Shown here piece by piece: positions 21,675 to 37,070 of a DNA stretch of 38,268 nucleotides. This DNA is from Candidatus Bathyarchaeota archaeon (lineage in GTDB: Archaea > Thermoproteota > Bathyarchaeia > Bathyarchaeales > Bathyarchaeaceae), in assembly GCA_020346825.1 (NCBI GenBank), contig CP070791.1, positions 1,128,887-1,167,154 on the forward strand. Reading direction: 5' to 3'. Within the stretch, counting starts at the first letter, position 1; each line of letters opens with the position of its first letter. A model generated the notes under the pieces. It had not been told where the DNA came from and did not search any database. It worked only from the letters and a program-made list of their open reading frames with translations. A program made the position numbers and the translations under genes.

Positions 21675-24600
21675 TTAAGCGACGAATTTTGTGAGGCTAA
21701 TTTGTTTAGGTTTGTTACCTTCGAACAAGGATCGTATTTCTTCTTCGACTAGGAAAAGTCGTTGAGTATAATAGTCGGAGAGACCATATTTTTGAACTAT
21801 TTGGTGTGCTGCTTCTAGATACTTTTCAATTCCTCCACGGTACACAGTTAGGACCACTGCGCCTCCACAACCAGGACACTTTCCGAGGAGCGGCGGGCGT
21901 CTAAACCGTCTGTTGCAAGATTTACATCTAAAGTTTTGGGTGGTGAAAGCTCTTAGGTTTCCCGCGATGTCACGGATAAAATGTGTCGTCAGAACTTTTT
22001 TCGCAACCATCTCCGCGTCGACAGCTTCAATCTTTTCCGCCAACTCAAGTTGACTATGCAACTTTTTAACCATCCGCCCCAGTCTCTTATACACACTCTC
22101 TTCATTACCAATATTGATGTCAGAAACGGGAATTGTATACTTGAACCCTTGAAACTGTGCTGCGGTGTTCAATCGATGTTCAATAAGGTCTATGAGTTCA
22201 CTCACTTTCTGCGGGGACTCTTTGTGCTCAGTTCTTTCATAGAAGGCGGATGGATATTTTGCTGCAACATCAACTTCATGAGCTTGTCGCTGCACTTCTA
22301 GTGGATTCACAACCGGAATTATGAACAACGGGGCATCCATTATTCCCCCTATCTGAGCAGGTAAATAGGCTTTAGAGAAGTTTAAGATCGCGTCCAAAGT
22401 GAGTATTAGAGAGTCCTCGTCACCATCACAGTCTCTACGCTTTGCTGAATGCCATAATGGATGAGCATAACAAACGTTCAAGCGAGTGAAGCCAATGATC
22501 CTCCCGAGGATGCCTACGGAGGTGTGTGGTGCCAAACCTACCACTAGATGCCCGATCAAGTCATCGGCGCGTTTAATGTTGTAATATGACGAAAGCCCAT
22601 ACGCTTTTTCTAGGAGTTCATCTAGGAAGTTGGCAACGCGAACGAAGTATTCTGCGCTCTTCAGCGGGATAATCACGTCTTGCACTTTAAGCTCACATAG
22701 CTGGTGGGCGCCAGACAATTTGTTTCCATTGCAATCGTAGCGGTAGCCAAGTTGCCGAAGATTTTCTACAGGCACACCAATTTCTGCAGCCATAAAATGC
22801 GTCAAAGGAGTGTTTGTAATATCGAACCGCATTGTTCCGTCCTTGAAAACAGACAAGTCGTGTTTCGCTCGCAGAATTCCCTTTTCAAGGATTTCAGGTG
22901 TTTTTGTTTCGTTCGTCAGACCCTTTACACCCTTCACTAGTTCGGGGATGGGAAGGTTCAGCTTCTTGCAGGCTTCATTCATCATCTCTTTAAGATCAAC
23001 TGATTGTTTGTTGTAGCTCCTTGTTGGAATCCTGCAAACGGGACAGAAAACGTCTTTTAGACGTCTTTTGCATTGGGGACAAAAATGTTCTACCAACGTG
23101 TCTGTTCCACATTTGAGACATTTCGTTCTGTAGGATGTTTCGTTACATTCTGAACAACGACGACTAGCGAGGTCAATATCGATTGTGGCACTGTTCAATG
23201 CTTCAGTAAGGTTTCGTCGAGAACCTCCTGCGAGCCCAATGGGGAAGAGGACGTGAACAAGTGGCCTCATCTCTCGCCTTTTCGCCTTTTCTGGGCGCCC
23301 CATTCTGGCGCCGATAAAGGTGGGAGCCTTTTTTCGCATAGGAATGCCTGTGAGGTTCTGAATGATTTCAAAGGCGTTTTTTGAGTGGACTATCTTTGTT
23401 TTAGTGGTGGGCGGTCCAAGACTATAAGCTAAAACATACGCCTCATCGTTTCTTATCCTAATTTTGTTTTCGCTGACTTCATGTGGAATACAAATCCTTT
23501 CAAGTATCTCTTTTACCGCCTCGTTATATACGCCAGTTATTTCTTGATCAATGTTGGCTTTCTTTTGCCTTTCGGAATTCAAAACCCATTTCCTTAACAT
23601 ATTAAATTCTTTACCCGAAACATTGCGCCAAAAAAAGGTGAAAGAAGGGTGAAGAGGTATCTTAAGCGCTAAAGATAATGCTATTGCCTCTTTGGCGCTC
23701 GGCTTGTTTTTGAAGGGATTCTTTAGGAAATCGTCAAGACGAGCTGTACAAATTTTGACGGTTGCCGCCGCCTTTTCTAGACTACCATGAAAAGCCTGTT
23801 TGATGAGCGATTGAAGCTCTTCACGCCACCATTCCTCAGTGTACCCGGAAGGAAGGAGAGGTTTATTATTATATAGAAAGTCGCCGAATCCGATGAGAAT
23901 GTCTCCAAGAAATAGAATTTTTTCAATTCGGTTTCTTATTTCTTTGAAGTTTTGAAGCGTGACACGAACAACGGATCCGTTTCTTAATCGTACAATCGGG
24001 GGTTCTATCGCGTCTACAGGAACAACAACCCCGGCTTTTCCGGGTCCTTCGATGCGAATCTGTGTTCCTGCGGCGAGAAAATTTTGGAGAACCATCATAG
24101 TCACCGGGTGTATGCCCACTGCTGCAAGGCCGGTATTCCTGGCTCTTCCATAGCGAAGCCTGAAGCCTCCTTGCCTTGACGGAAACGAAAAAATAGGACG
24201 GCCAGCTATGACGTCTTCCATAAAACCGGCCGTCTTCTTTTTCTCGATTTCTCTTATTTGCCTCAACCAACCCCATCCCTCGATTCCCAGTTTCTCGACG
24301 ATCGTCCAAACTTTTGCGGAGCGTCCTACAACTCCGTCATTTACAACTCGAAGAGCTCCGCCTCGAATTCTGTTTGTTTCAATTCGCGGAAGGTTGCGGA
24401 AGGATGAAACTTCAATTGGGTCGGACTCGGTGCCAGTGACTTCCACAGGAATAAATTGAATAGCTCTTTTCAATTCCTCGTCTGAAACATGATACTGGAA
24501 TCTTGCTACCGCCCGCTCGAATAGTCGTACTTCTTCTGTGAAACGTTTGATTTCCTCCTCGGTTGGCTTATAACGATCTAATCCGATCAGCCGGCGAACA

Positions 24601-25076
24601 AAATCTCCAATCACAAGGGTCAAGGCTTGTTCAGTGCCGCCTGCTGAACGTATTGGGCCAGCATAATAGATTGCCAGATATTTTGTTCGATCCGGGTTGG
24701 ATTTTATTGCTACTCGTGCCACACCTTGTAGTGGGGCCGCAGTGATTCCTTCAGTTAATATTGCGAGAGCGGTTCTTATGGCTTGCTCAGCTGCTTCACG
24801 TGCATCCATGTGCCCAAATTTTCCATAGACAATCTGCTCCGCAACTTTGAAAGCAAGCTCTTCTCGTGGTAGTTTCTTGCTTAAATCTCGTATGCTTTCG
24901 GCGACTCCGGAAGGACCTACAAGCCCCTCGACAAGCTTGGCTAAATCCTTCGCAACTTCAGGCTCAGGTCTAAGAGCCGGGTCTAGCCCGAGTGCTCTTG
25001 CTTTTCTTGCGACAGCATACAGGTTCTCTAGTTTCTTTTCTAAAATAGCCGTGTATTCTTGGTACTCTTTGCTCAT
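21675..25076 (-). CDS. polC: DNA polymerase D (Pol II) large subunit DP2
   Basis: The product is about 1133 aa. It has the N-terminal YAVARKARALGLDP, internal Cys4 clusters (CSECNETSYRTKCLKCG, CPQCKRRLKDVFCPVCR) and a C-terminal Zn module (FRCKSCNRRFRRPPLLGKCPGCGG). I prefer the ATG at 25076; the track uses a TTG at 25088. Nothing suggests an intein insertion. Confidence 0.95.
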   Translation of the reverse strand: MSKEYQEYTAILEKKLENLYAVARKARALGLDPALRPEPEVAKDLAKLVEGLVGPSGVAESIRDLSKKLPREELAFKVAEQIVYGKFGHMDAREAAEQAIRTALAILTEGITAAPLQGVARVAIKSNPDRTKYLAIYYAGPIRSAGGTEQALTLVIGDFVRRLIGLDRYKPTEEEIKRFTEEVRLFERAVARFQYHVSDEELKRAIQFIPVEVTGTESDPIEVSSFRNLPRIETNRIRGGALRVVNDGVVGRSAKVWTIVEKLGIEGWGWLRQIREIEKKKTAGFMEDVIAGRPIFSFPSRQGGFRLRYGRARNTGLAAVGIHPVTMMVLQNFLAAGTQIRIEGPGKAGVVVPVDAIEPPIVRLRNGSVVRVTLQNFKEIRNRIEKILFLGDILIGFGDFLYNNKPLLPSGYTEEWWREELQSLIKQAFHGSLEKAAATVKICTARLDDFLKNPFKNKPSAKEAIALSLALKIPLHPSFTFFWRNVSGKEFNMLRKWVLNSERQKKANIDQEITGVYNEAVKEILERICIPHEVSENKIRIRNDEAYVLAYSLGPPTTKTKIVHSKNAFEIIQNLTGIPMRKKAPTFIGARMGRPEKAKRREMRPLVHVLFPIGLAGGSRRNLTEALNSATIDIDLASRRCSECNETSYRTKCLKCGTDTLVEHFCPQCKRRLKDVFCPVCRIPTRSYNKQSVDLKEMMNEACKKLNLPIPELVKGVKGLTNETKTPEILEKGILRAKHDLSVFKDGTMRFDITNTPLTHFMAAEIGVPVENLRQLGYRYDCNGNKLSGAHQLCELKVQDVIIPLKSAEYFVRVANFLDELLEKAYGLSSYYNIKRADDLIGHLVVGLAPHTSVGILGRIIGFTRLNVCYAHPLWHSAKRRDCDGDEDSLILTLDAILNFSKAYLPAQIGGIMDAPLFIIPVVNPLEVQRQAHEVDVAAKYPSAFYERTEHKESPQKVSELIDLIEHRLNTAAQFQGFKYTIPVSDINIGNEESVYKRLGRMVKKLHSQLELAEKIEAVDAEMVAKKVLTTHFIRDIAGNLRAFTTQNFRCKSCNRRFRRPPLLGKCPGCGGAVVLTVYRGGIEKYLEAAHQIVQKYGLSDYYTQRLFLVEEEIRSLFEGNKPKQISLTKFVA

Positions 25077-25225
25077 CTCGCTGTCCAAAACCGGTCTCCT
25101 TCAATAGGATATTTGGCAGCGGATATTGAGTCTTTCTGACATAAAGCAGATAAAAAGCAAGGATGCGTTTTCGCGAGTTTAGAATGAAAGGAGAGTGGAT
25201 CCCGTTTCTGTGAGTGTTCCTTCAC

Positions 25226-25981
25226 TTATTCTACGTTTGGGTGTTTCGTGTTTTTTACCAATTCTCTGATTTTATCTGTCGCCGTGTACTCTTCTACAAT
25301 GGTGCCTGTAACAATGATGTCTGCCCCAGCGGTTGCTGCTTGTTTTACTTGTTCACCCGTTTTTATGCCTCCACCTACCACTAAACGCAGATTGGTAACG
25401 CGCTTTACACTTTGTATCATTTCGGGCGGTACTGGTTGTTTTGCGCCAGATCCCGCCTCCAAGTATACGAAACGCATTCCAAAATACTCTGCTACCAAGG
25501 CATGTGCAACAGTGAGTTCAGGTTTGTCATATGGAATAGGAATGGCCCGTCCAACGACGCTAGCTACGCGGCCTTCTCCCACGATTATATAACCTAATGG
25601 AATTGGCTCCAGATTAAATCTTTTGATGAGTGGTGCGCCCAGAACATGGGCTCCAATAATGAAGTAAGGATCTGTGGAATTTAGGAGCGACATGAACCAT
25701 ATGGCGTCGGCATATCTGCTAATACCCGTTACATTGTTGGGAAAAAGAATTACAGGAATCTCCACCGTCCTTTTTATAGCCTTTACAATCCGATCTAATC
25801 GTGAAGTGGATACAATCGTTGATCCGCCGACCATAATGGCCGCTGATTGACAGGACTCCGCTTCTTGAACTATGCGAGCTGCAGATTGAGGACTGGTCAT
25901 TTCAGGATCAACTAGAGTCATATGAAGGGTTCCTTCTTTCTGTATCTTTTCTAGAAGGTATTCTTCCACTTTACCAATCAT
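25226..25981 (-). CDS. geranylgeranylglyceryl phosphate synthase (GGGPS/PcrB family)
   Basis: Motifs are LHMTLVDPE, AIMVGGS, YLEAGSGA and VVGGGIKTGEQ. It starts at ATG 25981. Confidence 0.9.
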   Translation of the reverse strand: MIGKVEEYLLEKIQKEGTLHMTLVDPEMTSPQSAARIVQEAESCQSAAIMVGGSTIVSTSRLDRIVKAIKRTVEIPVILFPNNVTGISRYADAIWFMSLLNSTDPYFIIGAHVLGAPLIKRFNLEPIPLGYIIVGEGRVASVVGRAIPIPYDKPELTVAHALVAEYFGMRFVYLEAGSGAKQPVPPEMIQSVKRVTNLRLVVGGGIKTGEQVKQAATAGADIIVTGTIVEEYTATDKIRELVKNTKHPNVE

Positions 25982-25992
25982 ACAGAGTCCCA

Positions 25993-26235
25993 CTAGACGT
26001 TAGTTGCGCCCGAATAGAATTTGTCTGTGAATTGACAGTATATGTCGATCTCTTGGAAGGCGGGGCGGACAGACAGTTCATCCGTTAAGCCGCAACTTCC
26101 ACATCGCACCCTTGCGTTGTCTTCACCTGGCCGCAGCTCAACCCTGATAGCTTCTTTACCACATTTAGGGCACAGGTAAACCTTGGGCAACTTCGCTTTA
26201 GGGATCCGAACAACCTTTCTTCGTCTTCTACCCAT
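25993..26235 (-). CDS. elf1: Elf1-like transcription elongation factor (zinc ribbon)
   Basis: The 80-aa product reads [29 protein letters not shown]...VRCGSCGL...[14 protein letters not shown] basic N-terminus, a C4 ribbon and the (D/E)(V/I)Y..(W/F)(I/T)D tail match eukaryotic and TACK Elf1. Confidence 0.8.
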
Positions 26236-26403: not shown

Positions 26404-27255
26404 GTGTACACATTGAAGATAACGCCTAGCGTTCTGAAATTGGATTTGCCACTGGTTGAAAATAGAATTGAGGGGTTCATTAAAGATTACGTAGAAAAAT
26501 GTGGGACCGAGGGAGTGGTCTTAGGTGCATCCGGTGGACTTGACAGCTCAACAACGCTGGCTCTCGCCTCTCTTTCTTTAGGAGGCGACAGAGTGCTGGG
26601 CATTGCGATGCCCGAGCAGGAAACACACAACGCCACAGATATTCAACACGCAAAACTTCTTGCAGAAGAATTTGGCTTCAATATCCAAGTCGTTGACATC
26701 TCGTCAACGCTAAAAACGTTCTTCCACACGCTCCCAATTTACGATGCCACAAACAAACTTAGTAAAGGTAACGTAAAGGCGAGAATTAGAATGGTTTATC
26801 TCTACTATTATGCCAACAAACTTAACAGACTGGTGTGTGGCACCTCCGACAAATCTGAAACCATGATGGGTTACTTCACAAAGTGGGGAGACGGGGCTGC
26901 CGACATTTCACCCATCATGGATCTTTACAAGACCCAAGTTATGCAACTAGCTTCACATGTAGGTGTTCCAACCGGAATTGTGACGAAGCCGCCCTCTCCT
27001 AGGCTTTGGCCGAACCAGCTAGCGGAAAAAGAGTTAGGTATCAAGTATGAGATTCTAGATTTGATTCTGTTCGGCTTGGAACATTTTATGAAGCCTCAGG
27101 AAATCTCCGGGCAACTAAATCTGCCTATGGCCTTGGTTGAAGCCGTTAAGAGCCGGTGGCTAGCCTCAGAACACAAAAGGCAACCACCCTTAACAACAAA
27201 ACTTGGATTCAGAACCGTTGGAAAAGACTTTAGAGTTCCCCGGGGACTACACTAA
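26404..27255 (+). CDS. nadE: NAD+ synthetase, single-domain (PP-loop ATP pyrophosphatase)
   Basis: Motifs are GASGGLDSS, GTSDKSETMMGYFTKWGDG and SPRLWPNQ. It starts with GTG. Confidence 0.92.
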   Translation: MYTLKITPSVLKLDLPLVENRIEGFIKDYVEKCGTEGVVLGASGGLDSSTTLALASLSLGGDRVLGIAMPEQETHNATDIQHAKLLAEEFGFNIQVVDISSTLKTFFHTLPIYDATNKLSKGNVKARIRMVYLYYYANKLNRLVCGTSDKSETMMGYFTKWGDGAADISPIMDLYKTQVMQLASHVGVPTGIVTKPPSPRLWPNQLAEKELGIKYEILDLILFGLEHFMKPQEISGQLNLPMALVEAVKSRWLASEHKRQPPLTTKLGFRTVGKDFRVPRGLH

Positions 27256-27299: not shown

Positions 27300-28133
27300 G
27301 TGTTGAATAAAGTTAATGTAGCTCTTGCGCAAATGATGTGCAAAGTTGGAAGCAAAAAAAGCAATCTAGATATAATGAAAAGGAATATTGAACAAGCAAA
27401 GAAAAGGAACGCAAATCTCGTTATTTTTCCAGAGCTCTCATTAACAGGCTACTCGAATCGAGATCTTACATACGAGTTGGCTGAGTCCGTTCCAGGCCCT
27501 TCCACTCGTTTTCTAGAGGAGATAGCAAAGAAAGAGGAGCTATACGTAGTGTTTGGAATGCCGGAACATAGCGAAAAAGCACGCGCAGTTCTATTCAATA
27601 CCGCGGTTTTGTTGGGTCCTAACGGATTGATCGGCAAGTACCGAAAGATGCACTTGCCAACTCACAGCGTTTTCGAAGAAAAACGCTATTTTCGACTAGG
27701 ATATAAGGCACCAATTTTCGAAACAGAAATCGGAAAAATTGGTTTAACGATTTGTTATGATCTGTTTTTCCCGGAAATGTCCCGTTTGCTGAGAATGCAA
27801 GGTTCACAACTCATAATCTGTATATCCGCCTCGCCAGGCGTGAGGAGCAGGTTCTTTGAGGTATTCACCGTCGCGAGGGCCATTGAAAACACCGTTTTTC
27901 TAATCTATGTGAACCTTGTTGGAGTTGAAAACGGGCTACAATTTTGGGGAGGAAGCAGAATAATAGACCCCCGTGGAAACCTCCTCACTAAGGCCAAGTA
28001 TGATGAAGAAGATTTAGTAGTAGGTCACATTGACTACTCAGATTTAGAACATACAGAAACCTTTGTACCCACGCTTCGCGACTTAAGACCCGAACTATTC
28101 GCCTCCTTACGTGATCACGCAGAAACCCTTTGA
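27300..28133 (+). CDS. carbon-nitrogen hydrolase (nitrilase superfamily), candidate glutaminase partner of NadE
   Basis: VALAQM...LVIFPELSLTGY supplies the catalytic Glu, YRKMHLP the Lys and GLTICYDLFFPE the Cys. It lies 44 nt downstream of nadE on the same strand. Confidence 0.88.
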   Translation: MLNKVNVALAQMMCKVGSKKSNLDIMKRNIEQAKKRNANLVIFPELSLTGYSNRDLTYELAESVPGPSTRFLEEIAKKEELYVVFGMPEHSEKARAVLFNTAVLLGPNGLIGKYRKMHLPTHSVFEEKRYFRLGYKAPIFETEIGKIGLTICYDLFFPEMSRLLRMQGSQLIICISASPGVRSRFFEVFTVARAIENTVFLIYVNLVGVENGLQFWGGSRIIDPRGNLLTKAKYDEEDLVVGHIDYSDLEHTETFVPTLRDLRPELFASLRDHAETL

Positions 28134-28208
28134 GACATACCTGCCCGCGTAGATAGACCTCAAGATCTGCCTGATAAAGAGCTCCTACCTAAGGCCTGTC
28201 ACGGTTTT

Positions 28209-28265
28209 GGTGCTTGTGATAATCACACGTGATCTTCTTGTGATCAAAGAGATCACAAAAGCACC
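28209..28265. promoter_or_regulatory. compound palindromic operator-like element (TGTGAT/ATCACA half-sites nested in the GGTGCTT/AAGCACC inverted repeat)
   Basis: The sequence is GGTGCTTGTGATAATCACACGTGATCTTCTTGTGATCAAAGAGATCACAAAAGCACC. TGTGAT-A-ATCACA is at 28215-28227, GTGATC at 28229-28234, and TGTGATC-N5-GATCACA at 28239-28257. A TATA-like GATAAAGA lies about 35 nt upstream. Confidence 0.6.
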
Positions 28266-28631
28266 CCTTTGGAAGTTGTTCTCGCGAAAGGCTGTTACGC
28301 CCGGAACATCGCAATATCAATTGAACCCACGAAAAAAAAAGGGGCGTGTTATGTCGCTATATTCTCCTGGCTGGAAACTAAAACTTTGCGTTTTTTGTGA
28401 CTGTTGGTTCCAAACAGTGAATGCAACCGAAATAAACTGTATGAGCAGAAAAGAAACAAAGAACCAAGAGAAGGCAATCCACAATCTCGCGTAAGATGTT
28501 TGAAAACAGCGTGTTTAGGTGCTCAAAGCTTCAATTATATAAGAAGTTCCCAGGTATTTACGCATTCTCATACATTGTGGCCCAGGCACCCGCGCAAGAA
28601 CCCATTAATGACGAAACCATAAATCTTTAGT

Positions 28632-29159
28632 ATGCGCGTATACAAAAGCGTATCCCTCAGACACTCCTCCGGGGGAAAAAGGTTGCGCTCAAAAGAAAGG
28701 GCCCAAAAGTGGATAAAAAGCTTACTAGAAGATCCAATTGCGAAGGTGCTGGCAAAAAACAGCACTCTAACCAAAACACAGCTAGAAACGCTTCTAATCG
28801 ACTATCTAGCCGAAAGTCTGTCTGGAAAAGAACTAAAATACGACGAGAAGGCTAGATTAAGGATTTCGGCCGTGAGTCGTGGCGCTTTCAACAGAACTCT
28901 GCGGCAAGCCAGATGGAATGTCATCCAATCCCTCTACACGATCTTCCTTCTAGGATATTTGGGGGTTTTTGAGGACACGCGATTGGATCATTATCTAGAG
29001 GTTTCAAACAAACTAAAAACCTACATGAAGGCCCGCAGAAACCTCGTAACAAAAGAGGGGACAAACCAACACTTGAAAATCATAAGCGCATTACATGAAG
29101 AACTTAAAACAAGCCTAGAACACTTATCTAAACCAAGAACCAGGTCAAGCAAACTGTGA
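28632..29159 (+). CDS. orphan small DNA-binding protein (sigma-70 region 4 / Tfx-like HTH, tentative)
   Basis: The 175-aa ORF starts with ATG and has a basic N-terminus. LSGKELKYDEKARLRISAVSRGAFNRTLRQARWNVIQSL resembles an r4/LuxR/Tfx-type HTH. This is pattern recollection, not a search. Its stop codon lies inside the palindrome TGTGATATCACA. Confidence 0.6.
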   Translation: MRVYKSVSLRHSSGGKRLRSKERAQKWIKSLLEDPIAKVLAKNSTLTKTQLETLLIDYLAESLSGKELKYDEKARLRISAVSRGAFNRTLRQARWNVIQSLYTIFLLGYLGVFEDTRLDHYLEVSNKLKTYMKARRNLVTKEGTNQHLKIISALHEELKTSLEHLSKPRTRSSKL

Positions 29160-29173
29160 TATCACACATCACA
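29155..29173. promoter_or_regulatory. perfect 12-bp palindrome TGTGATATCACA plus a third ATCACA half-site
   Basis: The sequence is TGTGATATCACACATCACA. It overlaps the TGA stop (29157-29159) of the preceding CDS. Confidence 0.55.
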
Positions 29174-29412
29174 GTGTTGTTACAACAGAAGATTTGCAGG
29201 CGCATAAAAACCAACGATCCCAGAGACAGAGAAACTCAATTTTATGGAGTCGCGTTCGGCGGTTTTTGAGGTTATATTTGGCGTCCTTTTTAAAAATAAA
29301 GCGTCTTTCGCGTTACTTCGGTTCGAAAGAGTTACCAAGTATAGGTGCAACAGTGGAAAGGAACTATGTCAAGGCGTGCCTTCTTCAAGGAGGGAGTTTT
29401 TCAAGGAATGGG

Positions 29413-29550
29413 TGTGATATGTGATGTCACGGCTACAAAGGTCTTCGTGCTCCCCAATTTAACATAAAACTTAAGTTTATGCATATAATAATGTGATGTG
29501 TGATCAGGCTATGGAGATCACATGGTATCACATACGAATCACAAGTGATC
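29413..29550. promoter_or_regulatory. array of eight TGTGAT(C)/(G)ATCACA-type sites around a TATA-like box, upstream of the 29618 gene
   Basis: TGTGAT is at 29413 and 29420. TGTGAT is at 29492 and TGTGATC at 29499. GATCACA is at 29516, and ATCACA at 29527 and 29538. GTGATC is at 29545. The TATA-like GCATATAATAA is at 29481-29491. An SD-like GGGAGAGGTG lies at 29600-29609, before the ATG at 29618. Confidence 0.6.
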
Positions 29551-29617
29551 CTACGCCTTTTTTTCCACTTCACAAAGCATCTCCAATTCATCCTAAAAGA
29601 GGGAGAGGTGCGGCCTT

Positions 29618-30328
29618 ATGTATCCAGACCTTCTTTTGATTGTCGTATCCGCTCTGTTGCTCATCACGATTGGAGTGTCTGCCCTCTATTACGCGCGAAT
29701 AAAGGAGGTTCGAGAGGAATATGACACGGCAAAGAACACAGTGCGTGATGTTGTCTCGAGCTTCAACAGGCAATTTCAGAGACAAGAGGACAAACTCCAT
29801 GCCGTTACTCATAAGATAGAGGCCCTCTCTTTATATAACGAAAAAGGCGTGATGACGGTAGAAACAGTTGGTGAACAATTAGCGACTCTTGCAGACAGAA
29901 TTGAAGATGCCAAAAAAATCGAAAGAAAAGTGTCTACACAAATTCAAGATATGAACAAGAAGATTGATGATGTAAAAAGGGACCAAAACAAGGCAACCCA
30001 AAGAATCAATGAAGTTGAAAAAGTGAAATATCGATCACTCGTGTCCGAAGCAAAAATAGAAGCGGCTATCCCAATCAAAAAGGAAAAGGCCTTGGCTCCT
30101 TTAACGGAAACCGAACTGATGGCGCTTGAAATCGTCGCTGGAGAGGGTGAGAAGACGGCGCCAGAAATCAGAGAAAGAATAGGACTGACAAGGGAACATA
30201 CTGCGCGCCTAATGAAAAAGCTCTATGAAGCTGGTTATTTGGAAAGGGACACTCATAAGATGCCATATACCTACCGCCTAAAGGAAGAAATGCGGAAAAT
30301 CCTAAAGAAGAGGGAAGCCAAGACCTAG
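29618..30328 (+). CDS. membrane-anchored coiled-coil protein with C-terminal MarR/TrmB-like winged helix
   Basis: The 236-aa product has one N-terminal TM helix (LLLIVVSALLLITIGVSALYYA) and a charged heptad-like region of about 150 aa. The C-terminal wHTH is LTETELMALEIVAGEGEKTAPEIRERIGLTREHTARLMKKLYEAGYLERD. Confidence 0.7.
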   Translation: MYPDLLLIVVSALLLITIGVSALYYARIKEVREEYDTAKNTVRDVVSSFNRQFQRQEDKLHAVTHKIEALSLYNEKGVMTVETVGEQLATLADRIEDAKKIERKVSTQIQDMNKKIDDVKRDQNKATQRINEVEKVKYRSLVSEAKIEAAIPIKKEKALAPLTETELMALEIVAGEGEKTAPEIRERIGLTREHTARLMKKLYEAGYLERDTHKMPYTYRLKEEMRKILKKREAKT

Positions 30329-30438
30329 CCCTCGGCTTTAGCAACCAAAGAAGTTCCTGCCGCTTCCTTTCATCCCAAAAAATATCAAAAGAGCAGGTGC
30401 TTTGGAGCTGAAGGGGCATTACCGGTTGGGGTTTCCTT

Positions 30439-30879
30439 CTATCTATTACCTTTCACAAAACTTGATCCTTTGGATATGTTGGTAAGAATCCGGAACCGTC
30501 GGCGATTAGAGCCTCTGTTTTTGGCGAGGAGTCCGCGATTAGTCATTCTAGACAAATATGTCGAAACAGTACTCAGGCTAACGGGTTCTCTAAACTCTTC
30601 TTCATACGCAAATTGAATATCCTTAGAAGAAAACCACCCAATTGGGAACCGTCTTTCAACTACCAAACGAAGTTTATCAATTTTGGATAACTCCGATGGA
30701 GATGTATTCCACCCGATATTTGCGGTGGGCGCTCCTCCTAGTAGTTCAACTAGATCCAGTAGTTGAAGAGCCTTTTCCCTTGTCACTCTACCTTCAAAAG
30801 TTATGGTATACCGCTCTCCTATGCCAGTATAGATTTCTACACGTATTTTTCTAGCAGGCATCTCACTCATCCACAACAT
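30439..30879 (-). CDS. orphan winged-helix protein (N-terminal beta-rich domain + C-terminal wHTH)
   Basis: The ORF is about 146 aa and the C-terminal half has PVSLSTVSTYLSRMTNRGLLAKNRGSNRRRFRIL. Candidate starts are ATG 30879, 30870 and 30861. It is transcribed away from oriC. Confidence 0.6.
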   Translation of the reverse strand: MLWMSEMPARKIRVEIYTGIGERYTITFEGRVTREKALQLLDLVELLGGAPTANIGWNTSPSELSKIDKLRLVVERRFPIGWFSSKDIQFAYEEEFREPVSLSTVSTYLSRMTNRGLLAKNRGSNRRRFRILTNISKGSSFVKGNR

Positions 30880-30892
30880 CAAGAGTTTTTAC

Positions 30893-30912: not shown

Positions 30913-31062
30913 ATAGGACTTACGGTGAAGAAGTTATGGAAGAAGAACCCGAGAAATAGCCTTAAAATAGAAACTAACGTAAATTTGCATTTTATTAGGT
31001 TTACAAACTTCACACCCGCTTGTTTTTCTAAAACGAAGAATAAAGGTTCCGTGAACTCCGTT

Positions 31063-31085
31063 TTCCAGTAGAAATCCAGGGGTCG
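31063..31085 (+). promoter_or_regulatory. origin recognition box ORB-1
   Basis: TTCCAGTAGAAATCCAGGGGTCG shares the TCCA-N3-GAAAT-N2-AGGGGT core with the two other boxes. Confidence 0.75.
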
Positions 31086-31172: not shown

Positions 31173-31286
31173 TTCACGATTAGTCAACTGTTTGTATAAC
31201 AAAATTCAGATTGCAAGGTGAGTATTCAACATAATACTGTGTGTCTTCATGACTCTTTTTATGTTTCTTTGACGAGAACAACACTT

Positions 31287-31309
31287 CCACCCCTCTATTT
31301 CCTTTGGAC
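31287..31309 (-). promoter_or_regulatory. origin recognition box ORB-2 (inverted)
   Basis: The reverse complement reads GTCCAAAGGAAATAGAGGGGTGG. Confidence 0.75.
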
Positions 31310-31469
31310 TTGCTAACTGGACACTAAATCTTTGACTGATTTTTTGCCAAAAAAACATATGATATACTCTAAAATATTTTATAATAAATATTAAGTATAA
31401 AGAAATTTTATAACCAGCGGAGTCTTATTCTTTCAGAATTTACTTTACACTTCTTTTTACGAGACTTAT

Positions 31470-31492
31470 TTCCAGCGGAAATTTAGGGGTGT
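31470..31492 (+). promoter_or_regulatory. origin recognition box ORB-3
   Basis: The sequence is TTCCAGCGGAAATTTAGGGGTGT. A degenerate partial copy (ACCAGCGGAGTC) lies at about 31414-31425. Confidence 0.75.
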
Positions 31493-31668: not shown

Positions 31669-32919
31669 ATGGATGAACCTAGCATGATTGACACTGTTTT
31701 TGAACGATTTCTAAAAGGTACTCATATTTTTAGGAACAGAGACGTGCTACGCCACGATTATGTTCCCCATAAGCTTCCACATCGTGAAAAACAGATTCAT
31801 TGTCTGGGCGAAATAGTAGCTCCTGTTCTGAAGGGTTCTCGATGTTCCAATGTCTTTATCTACGGCAAAACGGGTACAGGAAAAACGGCAGCTACGAAAT
31901 ATGTGCTGAGTAAACTTTCTCAAAAATCAGGTGAATTGAGAGCACCTATTGAGGTTTGTTATGTAAACTGTCACTTGGCTGGCACAGAATATAGGGTCCT
32001 CTCAAGTTTATGTAATGCTTTAGGTGTGAGAGTTCCCTTTACGGGTTTGGCTGTAGGAGAGGTCTTTGATAGATTCAAAAAAGGATTAGATTTACGAAAA
32101 AATATTTTTATTGTTGTTCTTGATGAAATCGATGCACTAATAAAAGCGCGAGGAGACGTGTTACTTTACGAACTAACCAGAGTAAACGAAACTCTTCGTC
32201 ATGGTAGAACATCAATAGTAGGAATATCAAACGACCTTCGATTCAAAGAGTTTCTGGATCCTAGAGTTTTGAGTTCTCTTAGCGAAGAGGAAATAGTTTT
32301 CAGTCCGTATGATGCTGCTGAACTTCAGGATATCCTGTGGGAGCGTTCTCAACTAGCCTTTCTTGAGGGAGTACTTCTTGATAGCGCAGTTGGTCTGTGC
32401 GCTGCCTTGGCTGCTGCGGAACATGGAGACGCTAGAAGAGCTTTAGATCTACTTCGCGTTGCAGGTGAGGTGGCAGAGCGAGAAGGAGCCCCGTGTGTTA
32501 CTGAAGAGCACGTGCGTCAGGCTGAGAAGAGGGTTGAACACAATCGAATTATCGAAGTTTTGGTGAACCTTCCGCTACACTCAAAGTTGGTCCTATCCAG
32601 CGTTTACTTGTTGGGCAAGGCCAAGGTTAGTTGCGCCATCACTGGCGACATTTATGAGATTTATTGCGAGCTCTGTGATCAGTTTAGCCTTTCTCCGTTG
32701 ACTCAGAGGAGGGTTAGCGGGTTGATCAACGAATTGGATATGGTGGGGTTGCTGAACGCGCGGGTTGTGAGCATGGGGAGATATGGTCGCACGAAAAAGA
32801 TTCGCTTGGGTATTAACCGCGGTCTAGTTAGAAACGTATTCACTACTGATGATAGACTTGGGCGGTTGATTAATTATGTTCCCAAGTGTTTGGAGGGAGT
32901 TTCGGCTAGTAAGCGTTGA
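31669..32919 (+). CDS. cdc6: Orc1/Cdc6 replication initiator
   Basis: Walker A is IYGKTGTGKTA and Walker B is VVLDEIDAL. Sensor motifs and the DARRALDLLR arginine finger region are present, followed by a C-terminal winged helix. Confidence 0.95.
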   Translation: MDEPSMIDTVFERFLKGTHIFRNRDVLRHDYVPHKLPHREKQIHCLGEIVAPVLKGSRCSNVFIYGKTGTGKTAATKYVLSKLSQKSGELRAPIEVCYVNCHLAGTEYRVLSSLCNALGVRVPFTGLAVGEVFDRFKKGLDLRKNIFIVVLDEIDALIKARGDVLLYELTRVNETLRHGRTSIVGISNDLRFKEFLDPRVLSSLSEEEIVFSPYDAAELQDILWERSQLAFLEGVLLDSAVGLCAALAAAEHGDARRALDLLRVAGEVAEREGAPCVTEEHVRQAEKRVEHNRIIEVLVNLPLHSKLVLSSVYLLGKAKVSCAITGDIYEIYCELCDQFSLSPLTQRRVSGLINELDMVGLLNARVVSMGRYGRTKKIRLGINRGLVRNVFTTDDRLGRLINYVPKCLEGVSASKR

Positions 32920-33122: not shown

Positions 33123-34688
33123 TCACCCATACACCTCTGTAAAATTAATTGTTGAGACGTGCAGTGTTTGGAGATTTACAATTGGCACAATTCCCGGGGT
33201 AGGTATAACTCCCATTCTCTTTTGATAGTCTGTCTGCCCCTGCCAGGCACCAGAGTTGACCAAAAGAGTTCCCCGGTATGTGTCACATTTCAACACATGC
33301 ACATGTCCAGCATGAAAGATGTCTGGCACTCTTTCTATGACTATGAAGTCTTTGGTTTCCGGGGCGATGGGTGTTCTTTCACCATAAATTGGTGCAAGGT
33401 GTCTACTCTGCAACAAAAGCTTCATGGATTTGTTGGGGGTCTGAACGCTTACGTTTGGGGCAACAGCGGCGACATCGTCTAAGCTTCGTCCATGATACAA
33501 AAGTAGTTCAACTTCGTGTAGGCTAATTGTGCAAGGATTTCCGAGAGAATACATCTTTCGCGCTTCATATAGCGGTTCTGCGTAGTCTCGCGGTATTGCT
33601 GGTTGCGGCAACGCCTTTCTGGAAGCGTCATGGTTGCCCGGTATAATTACTACTTCGATATAATCTGGAATTTGTGCGATGAGTTTCGCCACTTCTCGAT
33701 ATTGTTCATAAATATCTTGTATCACCAGTTCTTCCATCTGCCCCGGATAAACACCTATCCCGTCCACGAGATCCCCGGCAATAACTACATATTTAACGTG
33801 GCTGGCCAAGTTTCTTGCGTGTTTGTTTCCAAAGTTTCCGTTCAGCCATGACACAAAGCGGTTGAATTCGTTCTCCATGAACATTTGGCTCCCTGTATGC
33901 AAATCTGATATGAGGGCTGCGTAGACGGGAAGTGACGCTTTATGCGGGGTTTTCTGAGGAACATCTGGCCAGATGAAATCTTTTGCGATAAATAGCTTGT
34001 TCCTTCCTTTTATGGCGCTTACGCAAATAACCTGATCCAATAAGAGAGTTTGGGCTTTTTCCATAGCCTCTTTGCCTATGTTATGGGGAACAAGAACAGT
34101 AACACTGGCTTCCAAATCCTCGAATTTCAAGAAGAGCCGCTTTTTAGACTCCCTCTTTTCCGTGACCATACCGATTATTTTAACTTTTGAATTAACTGGC
34201 GCCTTAAGGGCTTCCGAGATGGGCATGGCACTTTTTGTGTCGATCCTCCGCCTTAGAATTTTCTTTATCTTTTTGAAGCGATCTTGAAAGTACTGTAAAT
34301 ATTCCTCAGCGGATCCTGTCGTGCAGACTTTATCCGTTGGATCATCAAGCACTTTTATGTTGGCATCCGTATCTTTTGCATATGGACGAAAGGATTTCCT
34401 CGTTTCAAGGATGGGTCTCGGAGAACCAGACGAAGCGGGCTTCCCCTTCTGGAAAACGTCTTTAGCCATTTCTTCCAGAAGTTTGCGATCTACGAATAAC
34501 GGGTTTTCAGGCAATCCCGCAAGTTTTTCAATAGTTCTTTCCATCAAACTAAGGGGGTCTTCCTTTTTAGAAAGCGTGGTCAGAAAGTCGAAGGCCTCCT
34601 TGTCTAACTGGTAGCCCGCGGCGATCGTGAAGGAAACCGCTCTTTGGAGCTTCTCACCTTCACTCATAGCGGTCGCCTTCTCCAGCAT
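33123..34688 (-). CDS. polB: DNA polymerase D small subunit DP1 (Mre11-like phosphoesterase exonuclease)
   Basis: The 521-aa product has an OB-fold region (KIIGMVTEKRESKK) and calcineurin-like motifs: ISDLHTGS, VIAGDLVDG, IIPGNHDA and FHAGHVH. Confidence 0.93.
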   Translation of the reverse strand: MLEKATAMSEGEKLQRAVSFTIAAGYQLDKEAFDFLTTLSKKEDPLSLMERTIEKLAGLPENPLFVDRKLLEEMAKDVFQKGKPASSGSPRPILETRKSFRPYAKDTDANIKVLDDPTDKVCTTGSAEEYLQYFQDRFKKIKKILRRRIDTKSAMPISEALKAPVNSKVKIIGMVTEKRESKKRLFLKFEDLEASVTVLVPHNIGKEAMEKAQTLLLDQVICVSAIKGRNKLFIAKDFIWPDVPQKTPHKASLPVYAALISDLHTGSQMFMENEFNRFVSWLNGNFGNKHARNLASHVKYVVIAGDLVDGIGVYPGQMEELVIQDIYEQYREVAKLIAQIPDYIEVVIIPGNHDASRKALPQPAIPRDYAEPLYEARKMYSLGNPCTISLHEVELLLYHGRSLDDVAAVAPNVSVQTPNKSMKLLLQSRHLAPIYGERTPIAPETKDFIVIERVPDIFHAGHVHVLKCDTYRGTLLVNSGAWQGQTDYQKRMGVIPTPGIVPIVNLQTLHVSTINFTEVYG

Positions 34689-36958: not shown

Positions 36959-37070
36959 GCCGGGGTGACAGAGCGGTAATGTGCCGGCCTCGAGATGCAC
37001 GAATGTGGGGTCCAGAAGACAGCCGGTGGCGCTTTGCGCCTCAAGGGTTCAAGTCCCTTCCCCGGCGCCA
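36959..37070 (+). tRNA. tRNA-Ser(CGA), class II, with a 26-nt intron at or near the canonical 37/38 site (36995-37020); CCA encoded
   Basis: Hand-folded. The acceptor is GCCGGGG/CCCCGGC and the discriminator is G. The anticodon arm is CCGGC-CUCGAG[intron]A-GCCGG. The long variable arm is GGCGC-TTT-GCGCC and the T arm is AAGGG-TTCAAGT-CCCTT. Confidence 0.85.

Follow-up and report, generated by a model that had tools for sequence, protein, structure and literature searches.

The window analyzed here, 38,268 nucleotides of Candidatus Bathyarchaeota contig CP070791.1 (positions 1,128,887 to 1,167,154), carries a dense group of short DNA sites built on the half-site TGTGAY/RTCACA. The sites surround ORF158, an open reading frame (ORF) that belongs to no assigned protein family, and continue up to the neighboring gene for a membrane-anchored winged helix-turn-helix (wHTH) protein, which we call TMwHTH. 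The array comprises about 18 half-sites in four clusters over 1.3 kb. We consider it probable that these clusters form an ancient, conserved multi-site binding array for one sequence-specific DNA-binding protein, and we predict from the arrangement of the sites that they serve as operators. The window is archaeal, and homologues of the local proteins bear Bathyarchaeota or Bathyarchaeia names.

Enrichment of the half-site in the window

The hexamer TGTGAT, counted on both strands, has 25 matches in the window, 14 of which fall in 28215-29543 (at 28215, 28222, 28239, 28252, 29155, 29161, 29168, 29413, 29420, 29492, 29499, 29517, 29527 and 29538). Dinucleotide-preserving shuffles give an expectation of 17.5 copies per window and 0.61 per 1.33-kb span, and the Poisson probability of at least 14 copies in such a span is 6.5e-15. 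A preliminary description of this DNA had listed the fourteen half-sites, and all of their positions read back correctly from the sequence at 27900-29700. It had also seen only scattered single copies elsewhere, which agrees with our count, as the remaining 11 copies are all isolated singletons. The 5-bp core GTGAY/RTCAC gives the same picture at 13.2 sites per kb in the region versus 2.6 per kb elsewhere, and the three densest 150-bp windows of the entire 38 kb are the clusters themselves. One proposed member did not hold up. The variant palindrome CGTGATCACG at 28110-28119 lies inside the coding sequence of a carbon-nitrogen hydrolase and is kept in 0 of 65 orthologues, and it is therefore placed outside the array.

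Conservation of the array in Bathyarchaeia

For comparison we used 80 Bathyarchaeia loci around the ORF158 orthologue, one per species and about 10 kb each. Nearly every locus has TGTGAT/ATCACA massed at four matching positions. One lies upstream of ORF158 (-400 to -690), one is at the ORF158 stop codon (+469 to +488), and the other two are groups that precede the TMwHTH gene. When the loci are pooled, ATCACA/TGTGAT is the most enriched hexamer around ORF158, with 790 copies in 81 kb versus 312 in 579 kb of flanking sequence (18-fold). The half-site in these loci is TGTGAY/RTCACA, and related words point to the core GTGAY/RTCAC.

The ORF158-TMwHTH spacer, aligned across 12 species, shows what is being kept. 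The near-invariant islands in this alignment are the sites and a box resembling a B recognition element (BRE) and TATA element, separated by unconserved stretches of variable length. Invariant islands set in variable spacers are the signature of protein-binding DNA sites rather than of structured RNA. About 80 species share the sites, with their orientation and positions, but not the spacers, and this fits the earlier proposal of a multi-operator array for a sequence-specific, probably dimeric protein. Relatives that keep the flanking genes also keep the sites. The motif would have been a dispersed repeat had it been equally dense in unrelated regions; elsewhere in the window and in the 579 kb of flanks it occurs only as singletons, and the array occupies a single syntenic locus.

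Scans of viral and metagenome collections for dispersed copies of the 19-mer composite described below returned orthologous loci, isolated chance matches and eukaryotic satellites. The last group comprised a satellite of the GTGTCACAT/ATGTGACAC type (L103) and sequences adjoining TTAGGG telomere-like repeats, on low-GC, eukaryote-looking metagenome contigs (L103, 1-1300; L129, L102, L112, L195). These satellite and telomere-adjacent matches bear no relation to the archaeal array. One archaeal-looking match (L184) has a different gene context.

Composite sites bracket the putative TMwHTH promoter

The repeating unit of the array is a 19-bp composite of three half-sites, TGTGAY·RTCACA-n-RTCACA (written out, TGTGATATCACACATCACA), in which the central step of the 12-bp palindrome, marked here by the dot, is always pyrimidine-purine (TA, CG or CA). 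Cluster 2 (29155-29173, plus strand) matches it exactly as TGTGAT·ATCACA-c-ATCACA. This cluster overlaps the ORF158 stop codon, as had been reported, with the TGA at 29157-29159 falling within its first hexamer, and 79 of 81 loci have a composite of the form [TC]GTGAY RTCAC-A-n-RTCAC at this position. Cluster 3 (29413-29431, minus strand) is the inverted composite CGTGACATCACATATCACA, which has one mismatch where 0.15 matches are expected by chance. Because the composite matches on opposite strands, clusters 2 and 3 are inverted copies of each other, 240-300 bp apart. Cluster 3 is kept both in the 12-species alignment and in distant loci.

About 50 bp downstream of cluster 3 lies the BRE/TATA-like box of the TMwHTH gene (CATAAAACTTAAGTTTATGCATATAATAA, 29463-29491, plus strand), which is itself a conserved island in the 12-species alignment and in distant loci. 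We take this box to be the probable TMwHTH promoter, and the ORF158 promoter carries a box that resembles it. Across loci, the start of cluster 3 lies a median of 42 nt before the conserved form of the box, CATAAnnnTTAAR. The box is followed directly by cluster 4a (29492-29504, plus strand), a tandem TGTGAT-g-TGTGAT (TGTGATGTGTGAT) that is also kept in the 12-species alignment and in distant loci. The spacing here is nearly fixed: of the 24 loci that could be scored, 23 have a distance of 28-29 nt from the start of the box to that of the tandem TGTGATnTGTGAY. In archaea the TATA box is usually centered about 26 nt before the transcription start, and by this geometry cluster 4a would lie on or just before the predicted start.

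The leader that follows holds cluster 4b (29517-29550), with ATCACA at 29517, 29527 and 29538 and an inverted GTGATC at 29545. The steps of 10 and 11 bp between the three ATCACA copies are as first described, and they recur in the relatives: across 81 loci, two to four RTCAC sites stand between cluster 4a and the TMwHTH start codon, and 104 of 128 gaps measure 10 or 11 bp. The sites had been said to wrap around a TATA-like box upstream of the membrane wHTH gene, and they indeed bracket both the box and the predicted start, with fixed geometry across loci. Scans for sigma-70 promoters and intrinsic terminators were uninformative because the organism is archaeal.

Cluster 1 lies inside an aminotransferase gene in 36 species

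Cluster 1 (28215-28257) contains TGTGAT at 28215, ATCACA at 28222, a GTGAT core at 28229, TGTGAT at 28239 and ATCACA at 28252, and reads TGTGATCTCTTTGATCACAAGAAGATCACGTGTGATTATCACA on the minus strand. In 36 species with the full gene, the upstream cluster lies inside an aminotransferase gene, on its coding strand, where it occupies the codons for V[MT]SL[IV]T..SRV[IM]I, 18 to 6 codons before the NPTG motif. Codon choice at these positions is close to fixed. The valine at -18 is encoded by GTG in 36/36 cases (24% elsewhere in the gene), the isoleucine at -14 by ATC in 28/28 (21%), the serine at -10 by TCA in 36/36 (15%), the arginine at -9 by CGT in 31/35 (19%) and the valine at -8 by GTG in 32/33 (24%). 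The intervening L, D/K/E and K codons use all synonyms. As the codons of the sites are fixed and their neighbors are free, the conserved thing is the nucleotide sequence GTGAYGTCAC..ATCAC....TCACGTGTGAT. This extreme synonymous-codon constraint shows that selection acts on the DNA of cluster 1 itself and not on the protein.

The site block is also kept in the non-coding DNA of species that lack the aminotransferase gene, the window among them. Here the minus strand at 28218-28256 translates to VISLITRRSRVII, which matches VTSLITDKSRVII of the aminotransferase in L019, where the gene occupies this position, as in other relatives. The simplest history would be that codon choice built the sites into the aminotransferase gene, which they then outlived. 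The outer inverted repeat GGTGCTT...AAGCACC that encloses cluster 1 (28209-28265) does exist, with arms at 28209-28215 and 28259-28265, and is lineage-specific. It is missing from L001-L005, and in the 94%-identical L219 both arms are altered without compensation, which places it outside the conserved array.

ORF158 and a second palindrome in its promoter

ORF158 (plus strand, 158 or 175 amino acids; 28683-29159 or 28632-29159) lies between cluster 1 and clusters 2-4. It had been described as an orphan HTH gene, but it is no orphan. The protein has 3,421 homologues at E <= 0.001, most of 156-158 amino acids (307 representatives at 50% clustering), and the family is kept across two archaeal classes. 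The HTH assignment is our reading of the sequence pattern VSRGAFNRTLRQA, and should be taken as such a reading and not as a result. Searches with the ORF158 sequence against Pfam, NCBIfam and PDB sequences gave no match. An AlphaFold2 model built on a more diverse alignment is all-helical with a predicted local distance difference test (pLDDT) score of 83, up from 56 in an earlier model; a Foldseek search of the PDB with this model returned nothing below E = 0.9, with weak recurrent matches to sigma-70 region 4 and Rpb4. The ATG at 28632 had been given as the start codon. The start shared by most homologues falls at TTG 28683, and upstream of it the frame is interrupted by stops in many loci, so that the true start is probably TTG 28683 and the first 17 codons (28632-28682) are probably non-coding. 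The apparent N-terminal extension VYKSVS does not code either, as in-frame stops follow right after it in many orthologous loci, and its nucleotides form the conserved DNA element described next.

The ORF158 promoter has no TGTGAT sites. It carries a different operator-like element, the imperfect and ultra-conserved palindrome GTATACAAAAGCGTATCC (28638-28655, plus strand), which has the form GTATAC-N6-GTATCC. Of the 80 loci, 55 carry an exact match to the pattern GTATACAAAANNGTATCC, each as a single copy placed at -45 or -54 relative to the ORF158 start. Its size (18 bp) and symmetry are those expected of a site for a wHTH or HTH dimer. Two distinct conserved operators side by side imply two regulators, and cross-regulation is as plausible as double autoregulation.

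Candidate binding proteins

TMwHTH (29618-30328, plus strand, 236 amino acids) consists of an N-terminal transmembrane helix, a coiled coil and a C-terminal winged helix of the MarR/TrmB type. Residues 162-221 match HTH_27, MarR and TrmB in Pfam. TMwHTH has 2,426 homologues. Its N-terminal transmembrane helix is conserved, its coiled coil is long and its wHTH cytoplasmic, and it has no sensor domain. The third member of the conserved gene trio, ORF147 (30439-30882, minus strand, 147 amino acids), adjoins oriC and gives a weak C-terminal winged-helix signal, with poor Pfam matches to Penicillinase_R (0.011) and Cdc6_C (0.012). It is syntenic in most loci, and its orthologues in distant loci match at 1e-20 to 1e-28.

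The recognition helix of TMwHTH, TREHT[AS]R, is conserved as far across evolution as the motif is, even into the Nitrososphaeria-like orthologues described below. The putative DNA-reading segments are equally conserved in all three neighboring proteins. Since neither the motif nor any candidate recognition helix varies, covariation of the two cannot pick out the binder. The most likely binder is one of the two proteins that are always adjacent to the array, TMwHTH or ORF158, both as candidates. That TMwHTH binds the array in its own promoter and is autoregulated is a serious possibility, if short of an even chance; ORF158 as the protein that binds the TGTGAY array is possible but somewhat less probable; and binding by another factor seems rather unlikely.

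A simpler arrangement in Nitrososphaeria-like contigs

Divergent ORF158 homologues of 129-135 amino acids are found in contigs that carry the same gene island (L210, L212, L214-L218). Gene context (Snf7, CorA), TARA sources and a GC content of 26-49%, which are the whole basis of the assignment, suggest that these contigs are Nitrososphaeria. In them DP2, PcrB and Elf1 lie on one strand and are followed by genes for the ORF158-like protein, a protein with transmembrane, coiled-coil and wHTH parts, and an ORF147-like protein; CorA (missing in one), Cdc6 and DP1 then follow in 5 of the 7 contexts shown. The TMwHTH and ORF147 neighbors are true orthologues of the Bathyarchaeia proteins (blastp 1e-10 to 1e-28). 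The palindrome TTATAC-N6-GTATAA precedes the ORF158-like gene at the same place as the Bathyarchaeia palindrome, and GTGAT/ATCAC sites stand between a TATA-like stretch and the wHTH start codon.

These loci have only 1-4 sites, located exactly at gene starts. One such start is that of the replicative polymerase subunit DP2, where TGTGATATCACA or related pairs stand directly at the start codon (e.g. L214 4836-4847, L212 4782-4793). This placement suggests that the same factor may control DP2 in the Nitrososphaeria-like contigs. Bathyarchaeia have no conserved sites at the DP2 start, with zero sites in 48 of 64 loci. Because the motif stands beside orthologous genes in both groups, the pairing of motif and genes pre-dates their split, and the array in Bathyarchaeia is an expanded form of it. 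As a side observation, conserved GTGAT...ATCAC pairs also occur inside pcrB, only in L212 and L214.

Genomic context of the array

In gene order, the window holds PolD DP2 (21675-25088, minus strand), the geranylgeranylglyceryl phosphate synthase PcrB (25226-25993, minus strand), an Elf1-type zinc-ribbon protein (25993-26235, minus strand; PF05129, E = 1e-15) encoded by a small ORF upstream of pcrB, NAD synthase (26404-27255) and the carbon-nitrogen hydrolase (27300-28133), followed by the array with ORF158, TMwHTH and ORF147, and then by oriC, Orc1/Cdc6 (31669-32919) and PolD DP1 (33123-34688, minus strand). Synteny from DP2 to DP1 is kept class-wide, and the locus is always within this replication island of DP2...oriC-Cdc6-DP1. 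The Elf1-PcrB-DP2 order is shared by Bathyarchaeia and the Nitrososphaeria-like contigs. Optional extra genes occur at two points, namely a 110-amino-acid ORF and the class I/II aminotransferase (minus strand) before ORF158, and a HerA (DUF87) and NurA pair of about 2.6 kb between TMwHTH and ORF147 in most species. A HerA-NurA pair beside oriC without Mre11/Rad50 is itself unusual.

The earlier call of an oriC is supported by the sequence. Between ORF147 and cdc6, three repeats resembling origin recognition boxes (ORBs; TTTCCAGnnGAAAT..AGGGGT) at 31062-31083, 31281-31308 (minus strand) and 31469-31490 flank a very AT-rich stretch near 31355-31400. That the array is next to oriC is true of this lineage only; in most relatives HerA and NurA (about 2.6 kb) intervene. 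Compared with L001, L006 and L019, the window lacks all of the extra genes (at 28134-28630 and 30329-30438), and the array is unusually near oriC here because they are missing.

Two other features of the window were noted. A strongly conserved element, TTTTATCT..TTT.TGT[CT]AGAAAGACTCAATA[TC]C, stands before the DP2 start in Bathyarchaeia loci (about 25100-25135, minus strand) and is probably the DP2 promoter or another operator; it has no relation to TGTGAT. At 36959-37067 (plus strand), a 109-nt Rfam tRNA match without an ARAGORN call is probably an intron-containing archaeal tRNA gene.

Proposed mechanism and alternative explanations

What the loci show directly is the sites, their conservation, the selection on their DNA sequence and how they are placed with respect to promoter elements and genes. 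From these we infer binding by a protein, repression and looping. We propose that a TGTGAY-binding protein would occupy the composite upstream of the TATA-like box, the tandem at the start site and the phased leader sites of the TMwHTH gene. The phased half-sites follow on a single helical face as far as the start codon, and cooperative occupation of the whole would shut off initiation at TMwHTH, making this a multi-site repressor operator. The two distal composites, one on the ORF158 stop codon (240-300 bp from the promoter-proximal copy) and the other 0.9-1.3 kb upstream, would probably raise occupancy by looping, or may act as roadblocks or insulators around ORF158.

Several points weigh against this operator model. 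About 18 half-sites over 1.3 kb exceed the needs of simple autoregulation, one cluster lies at least 650 bp from any promoter inside another gene, and another is fixed on a stop codon. The spacings between half-sites are heterogeneous (0, 2, 7, 10-11 and 18 bp), an uncommon pattern for sites of a classical MarR dimer. The promoter positions are predicted from sequence conservation and standard archaeal promoter geometry. The three neighboring proteins are equally conserved and ORF158 has no recognizable fold, which leaves more than one candidate for the binder. The number and spread of the sites and the tenacity of the distal block are poorly explained by repression, and this keeps alive a different idea, in which TMwHTH fastens the origin neighborhood to the membrane for positioning or segregation, in the manner of a centromere, with repression of its own gene as a side effect. 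We regard this as unlikely. In its favor, TMwHTH has a conserved transmembrane helix, a long coiled coil and a cytoplasmic wHTH but no sensor domain, there are more and wider-spread sites than a promoter needs, a block of them is preserved in a coding gene and after the loss of that gene, the locus is always within the replication island, and bacteria have analogues in which a membrane-anchored DNA-binding protein sits on origin-proximal motifs, such as RicO (bioRxiv 10.64898/2026.03.06.710092). A pure tether does not, however, need a promoter bracketed with fixed geometry, and the Nitrososphaeria-like loci make do with 1-4 sites exactly at gene starts. No ParA-type partition ATPase was found among the 15 neighboring window genes scanned (the HerA-type ATPase near the array in relatives belongs to a different family), and TMwHTH is itself only a candidate binder. 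Were TMwHTH the binder, the island near the origin would necessarily be tied to the membrane through the array, in the way that RicO acts in Staphylococcus. The fuller version of this idea, in which the array is the membrane attachment site through which TMwHTH holds the PolD/Cdc6/oriC island in Bathyarchaeia, a simpler ancestral form in Nitrososphaeria-like archaea also gates DP2, and two regulators act on two operators, is to our mind about as unlikely.

Other explanations fit the data less well than the operator model. The preliminary description had offered an iteron-like or origin-auxiliary array, which would serve an initiator or accessory protein, with ORF147 as one candidate. The array does lie 1.5 kb from the ORB-type repeats and AT-rich oriC stretch in the window, ORF147 has its weak Cdc6_C match (E = 0.012), and the motif also marks the DP2 polymerase gene in the Nitrososphaeria-like loci. 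We nonetheless find a replication element very improbable, as the interval from ORF147 to cdc6, covered over the 900 bp before cdc6, shows no conserved TGTGAT sites in 38 loci, and in most species HerA and NurA (2.6 kb) stand between the array and oriC. Moreover, the 6-bp half-sites in mixed orientation are not 17-22-bp tandem iterons, the sites take promoter or start-codon positions, no Rep gene is found among the neighbors, no AT-rich unwinding element adjoins the clusters, and the locus is chromosomal and syntenic. Equally improbable is an element acting in RNA, in which the inverted copies would form mRNA hairpins (in the wHTH 5' leader, or as a terminator or stabilizer after ORF158) or an RNA-protein site. 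Clusters 1 and 3 fold better than shuffles (z = -4.6 and -2.95), and in clusters 4a and 4b of some species the T or C of GTGAY agrees with the A or G of the facing RTCAC. What is invariant is nevertheless the sequence and not the pairing, as compensatory changes are absent and the pairing fails in L038 and L049. Cluster 4 folds no better than shuffles (z = -1.2), and the good fold of cluster 1 comes from its outer stem, which is lineage-specific. The central palindrome is loopless, the motif occurs in both orientations, antisense to a coding gene, ahead of the TATA box and beside more than one gene, and no known Rfam RNA was matched in the window at gathering thresholds or in 28100-29650 at E <= 1. 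An 18-nt inverted pair (29161-29178 and 29487-29504, 89% complementary) could be read as terminal inverted repeats, and would then point to a dispersed repeat or the remnant of a miniature inverted-repeat transposable element. Such an origin, or a chance or compositional artefact, has a negligible probability given a single locus that is syntenic in about 80 species and a second class, singletons only in the window and the 579 kb flanks, composite scans that return orthologous loci, chance matches and eukaryotic satellites, and a chance probability of 6e-15.

Comparison with known systems

A multi-site operator array beside its regulator genes is a known kind of arrangement. In the open-access literature we found no prior description of this motif, the two protein families or their arrangement, and no description of Bathyarchaeia origins or of membrane-anchored archaeal wHTH proteins. 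The closest parallel in sequence is TrmBL1, a wHTH protein of the TrmB type that recognizes TATCAC-N5-GTGATA (the Thermococcales glycolytic motif, TGM) and, from sites downstream of the TATA box, represses by preventing the recruitment of RNA polymerase (PMC4706686). The half-site GTGAT(A)/(T)ATCAC is the same, and a wHTH protein of the TrmB/MarR type is encoded next to the array. The arrangement of the half-sites differs, as ATCAC-N5-GTGAT has 0 matches in the window and the spacings here are 0, 2, 7 and 10-11 bp within a three-half-site unit. TrmBL1 itself is soluble, senses sugars and acts as a global regulator in Thermococcales through dispersed single sites, whereas the sites here are massed at one locus and the candidate TMwHTH is membrane-anchored and has no sugar-binding domain. 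The recognition helices are not alike by eye.

Autoregulated MarR repressors offer a parallel in layout, with a winged-helix gene that follows dyad-symmetric sites over a core promoter (a predicted one in the present case), the sites being conserved with the gene. They differ from the present case in that it has about 18 half-sites and distal clusters on a neighbor's stop codon and in or after another gene, and in that the MarR dimerization fold is replaced in TMwHTH by a transmembrane anchor and a coiled coil. RacA/ram, ParB/parS and RicO/ricS in bacteria, and the SegB sites of Sulfolobus, share with the array a short palindromic motif repeated near an origin; RicO is further alike in being a DNA-binding protein able to contact the membrane, a role for which TMwHTH is here only a candidate. 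Unlike those tether and centromere systems, the array has no adjacent partition ATPase gene, is confined to about 1.3 kb, shows promoter-linked geometry and goes with unrelated protein families. The archaeal ORB and mini-ORB elements bound by Orc1/Cdc6 are likewise repeated elements in the same replication island, but the array differs from them in sequence, lies outside oriC and is not arranged around an AT-rich unwinding element.

Significance for Bathyarchaeia

Bathyarchaeia are abundant, mostly uncultured archaea of sediments, and to our knowledge essentially nothing is known of their gene regulation and chromosome biology. The array provides a precisely defined cis-element in this class, with a half-site, a 19-bp composite and a fixed geometry, together with two or three candidate proteins, and it lies inside the replication island. 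It is conserved class-wide, and Nitrososphaeria-like archaea have a simpler form of it that is also found at the start of DP2. The block embedded in the aminotransferase gene and kept after the loss of that gene is a clean natural case of regulatory code laid over protein code. If TMwHTH is the binder, a locus adjacent to oriC would be physically tied to the membrane, which would bear on how origins are positioned in archaea that have no known partition systems. If the array does serve as a membrane tether, it would represent a previously unknown archaeal system for origin tethering and replication-coupled control.

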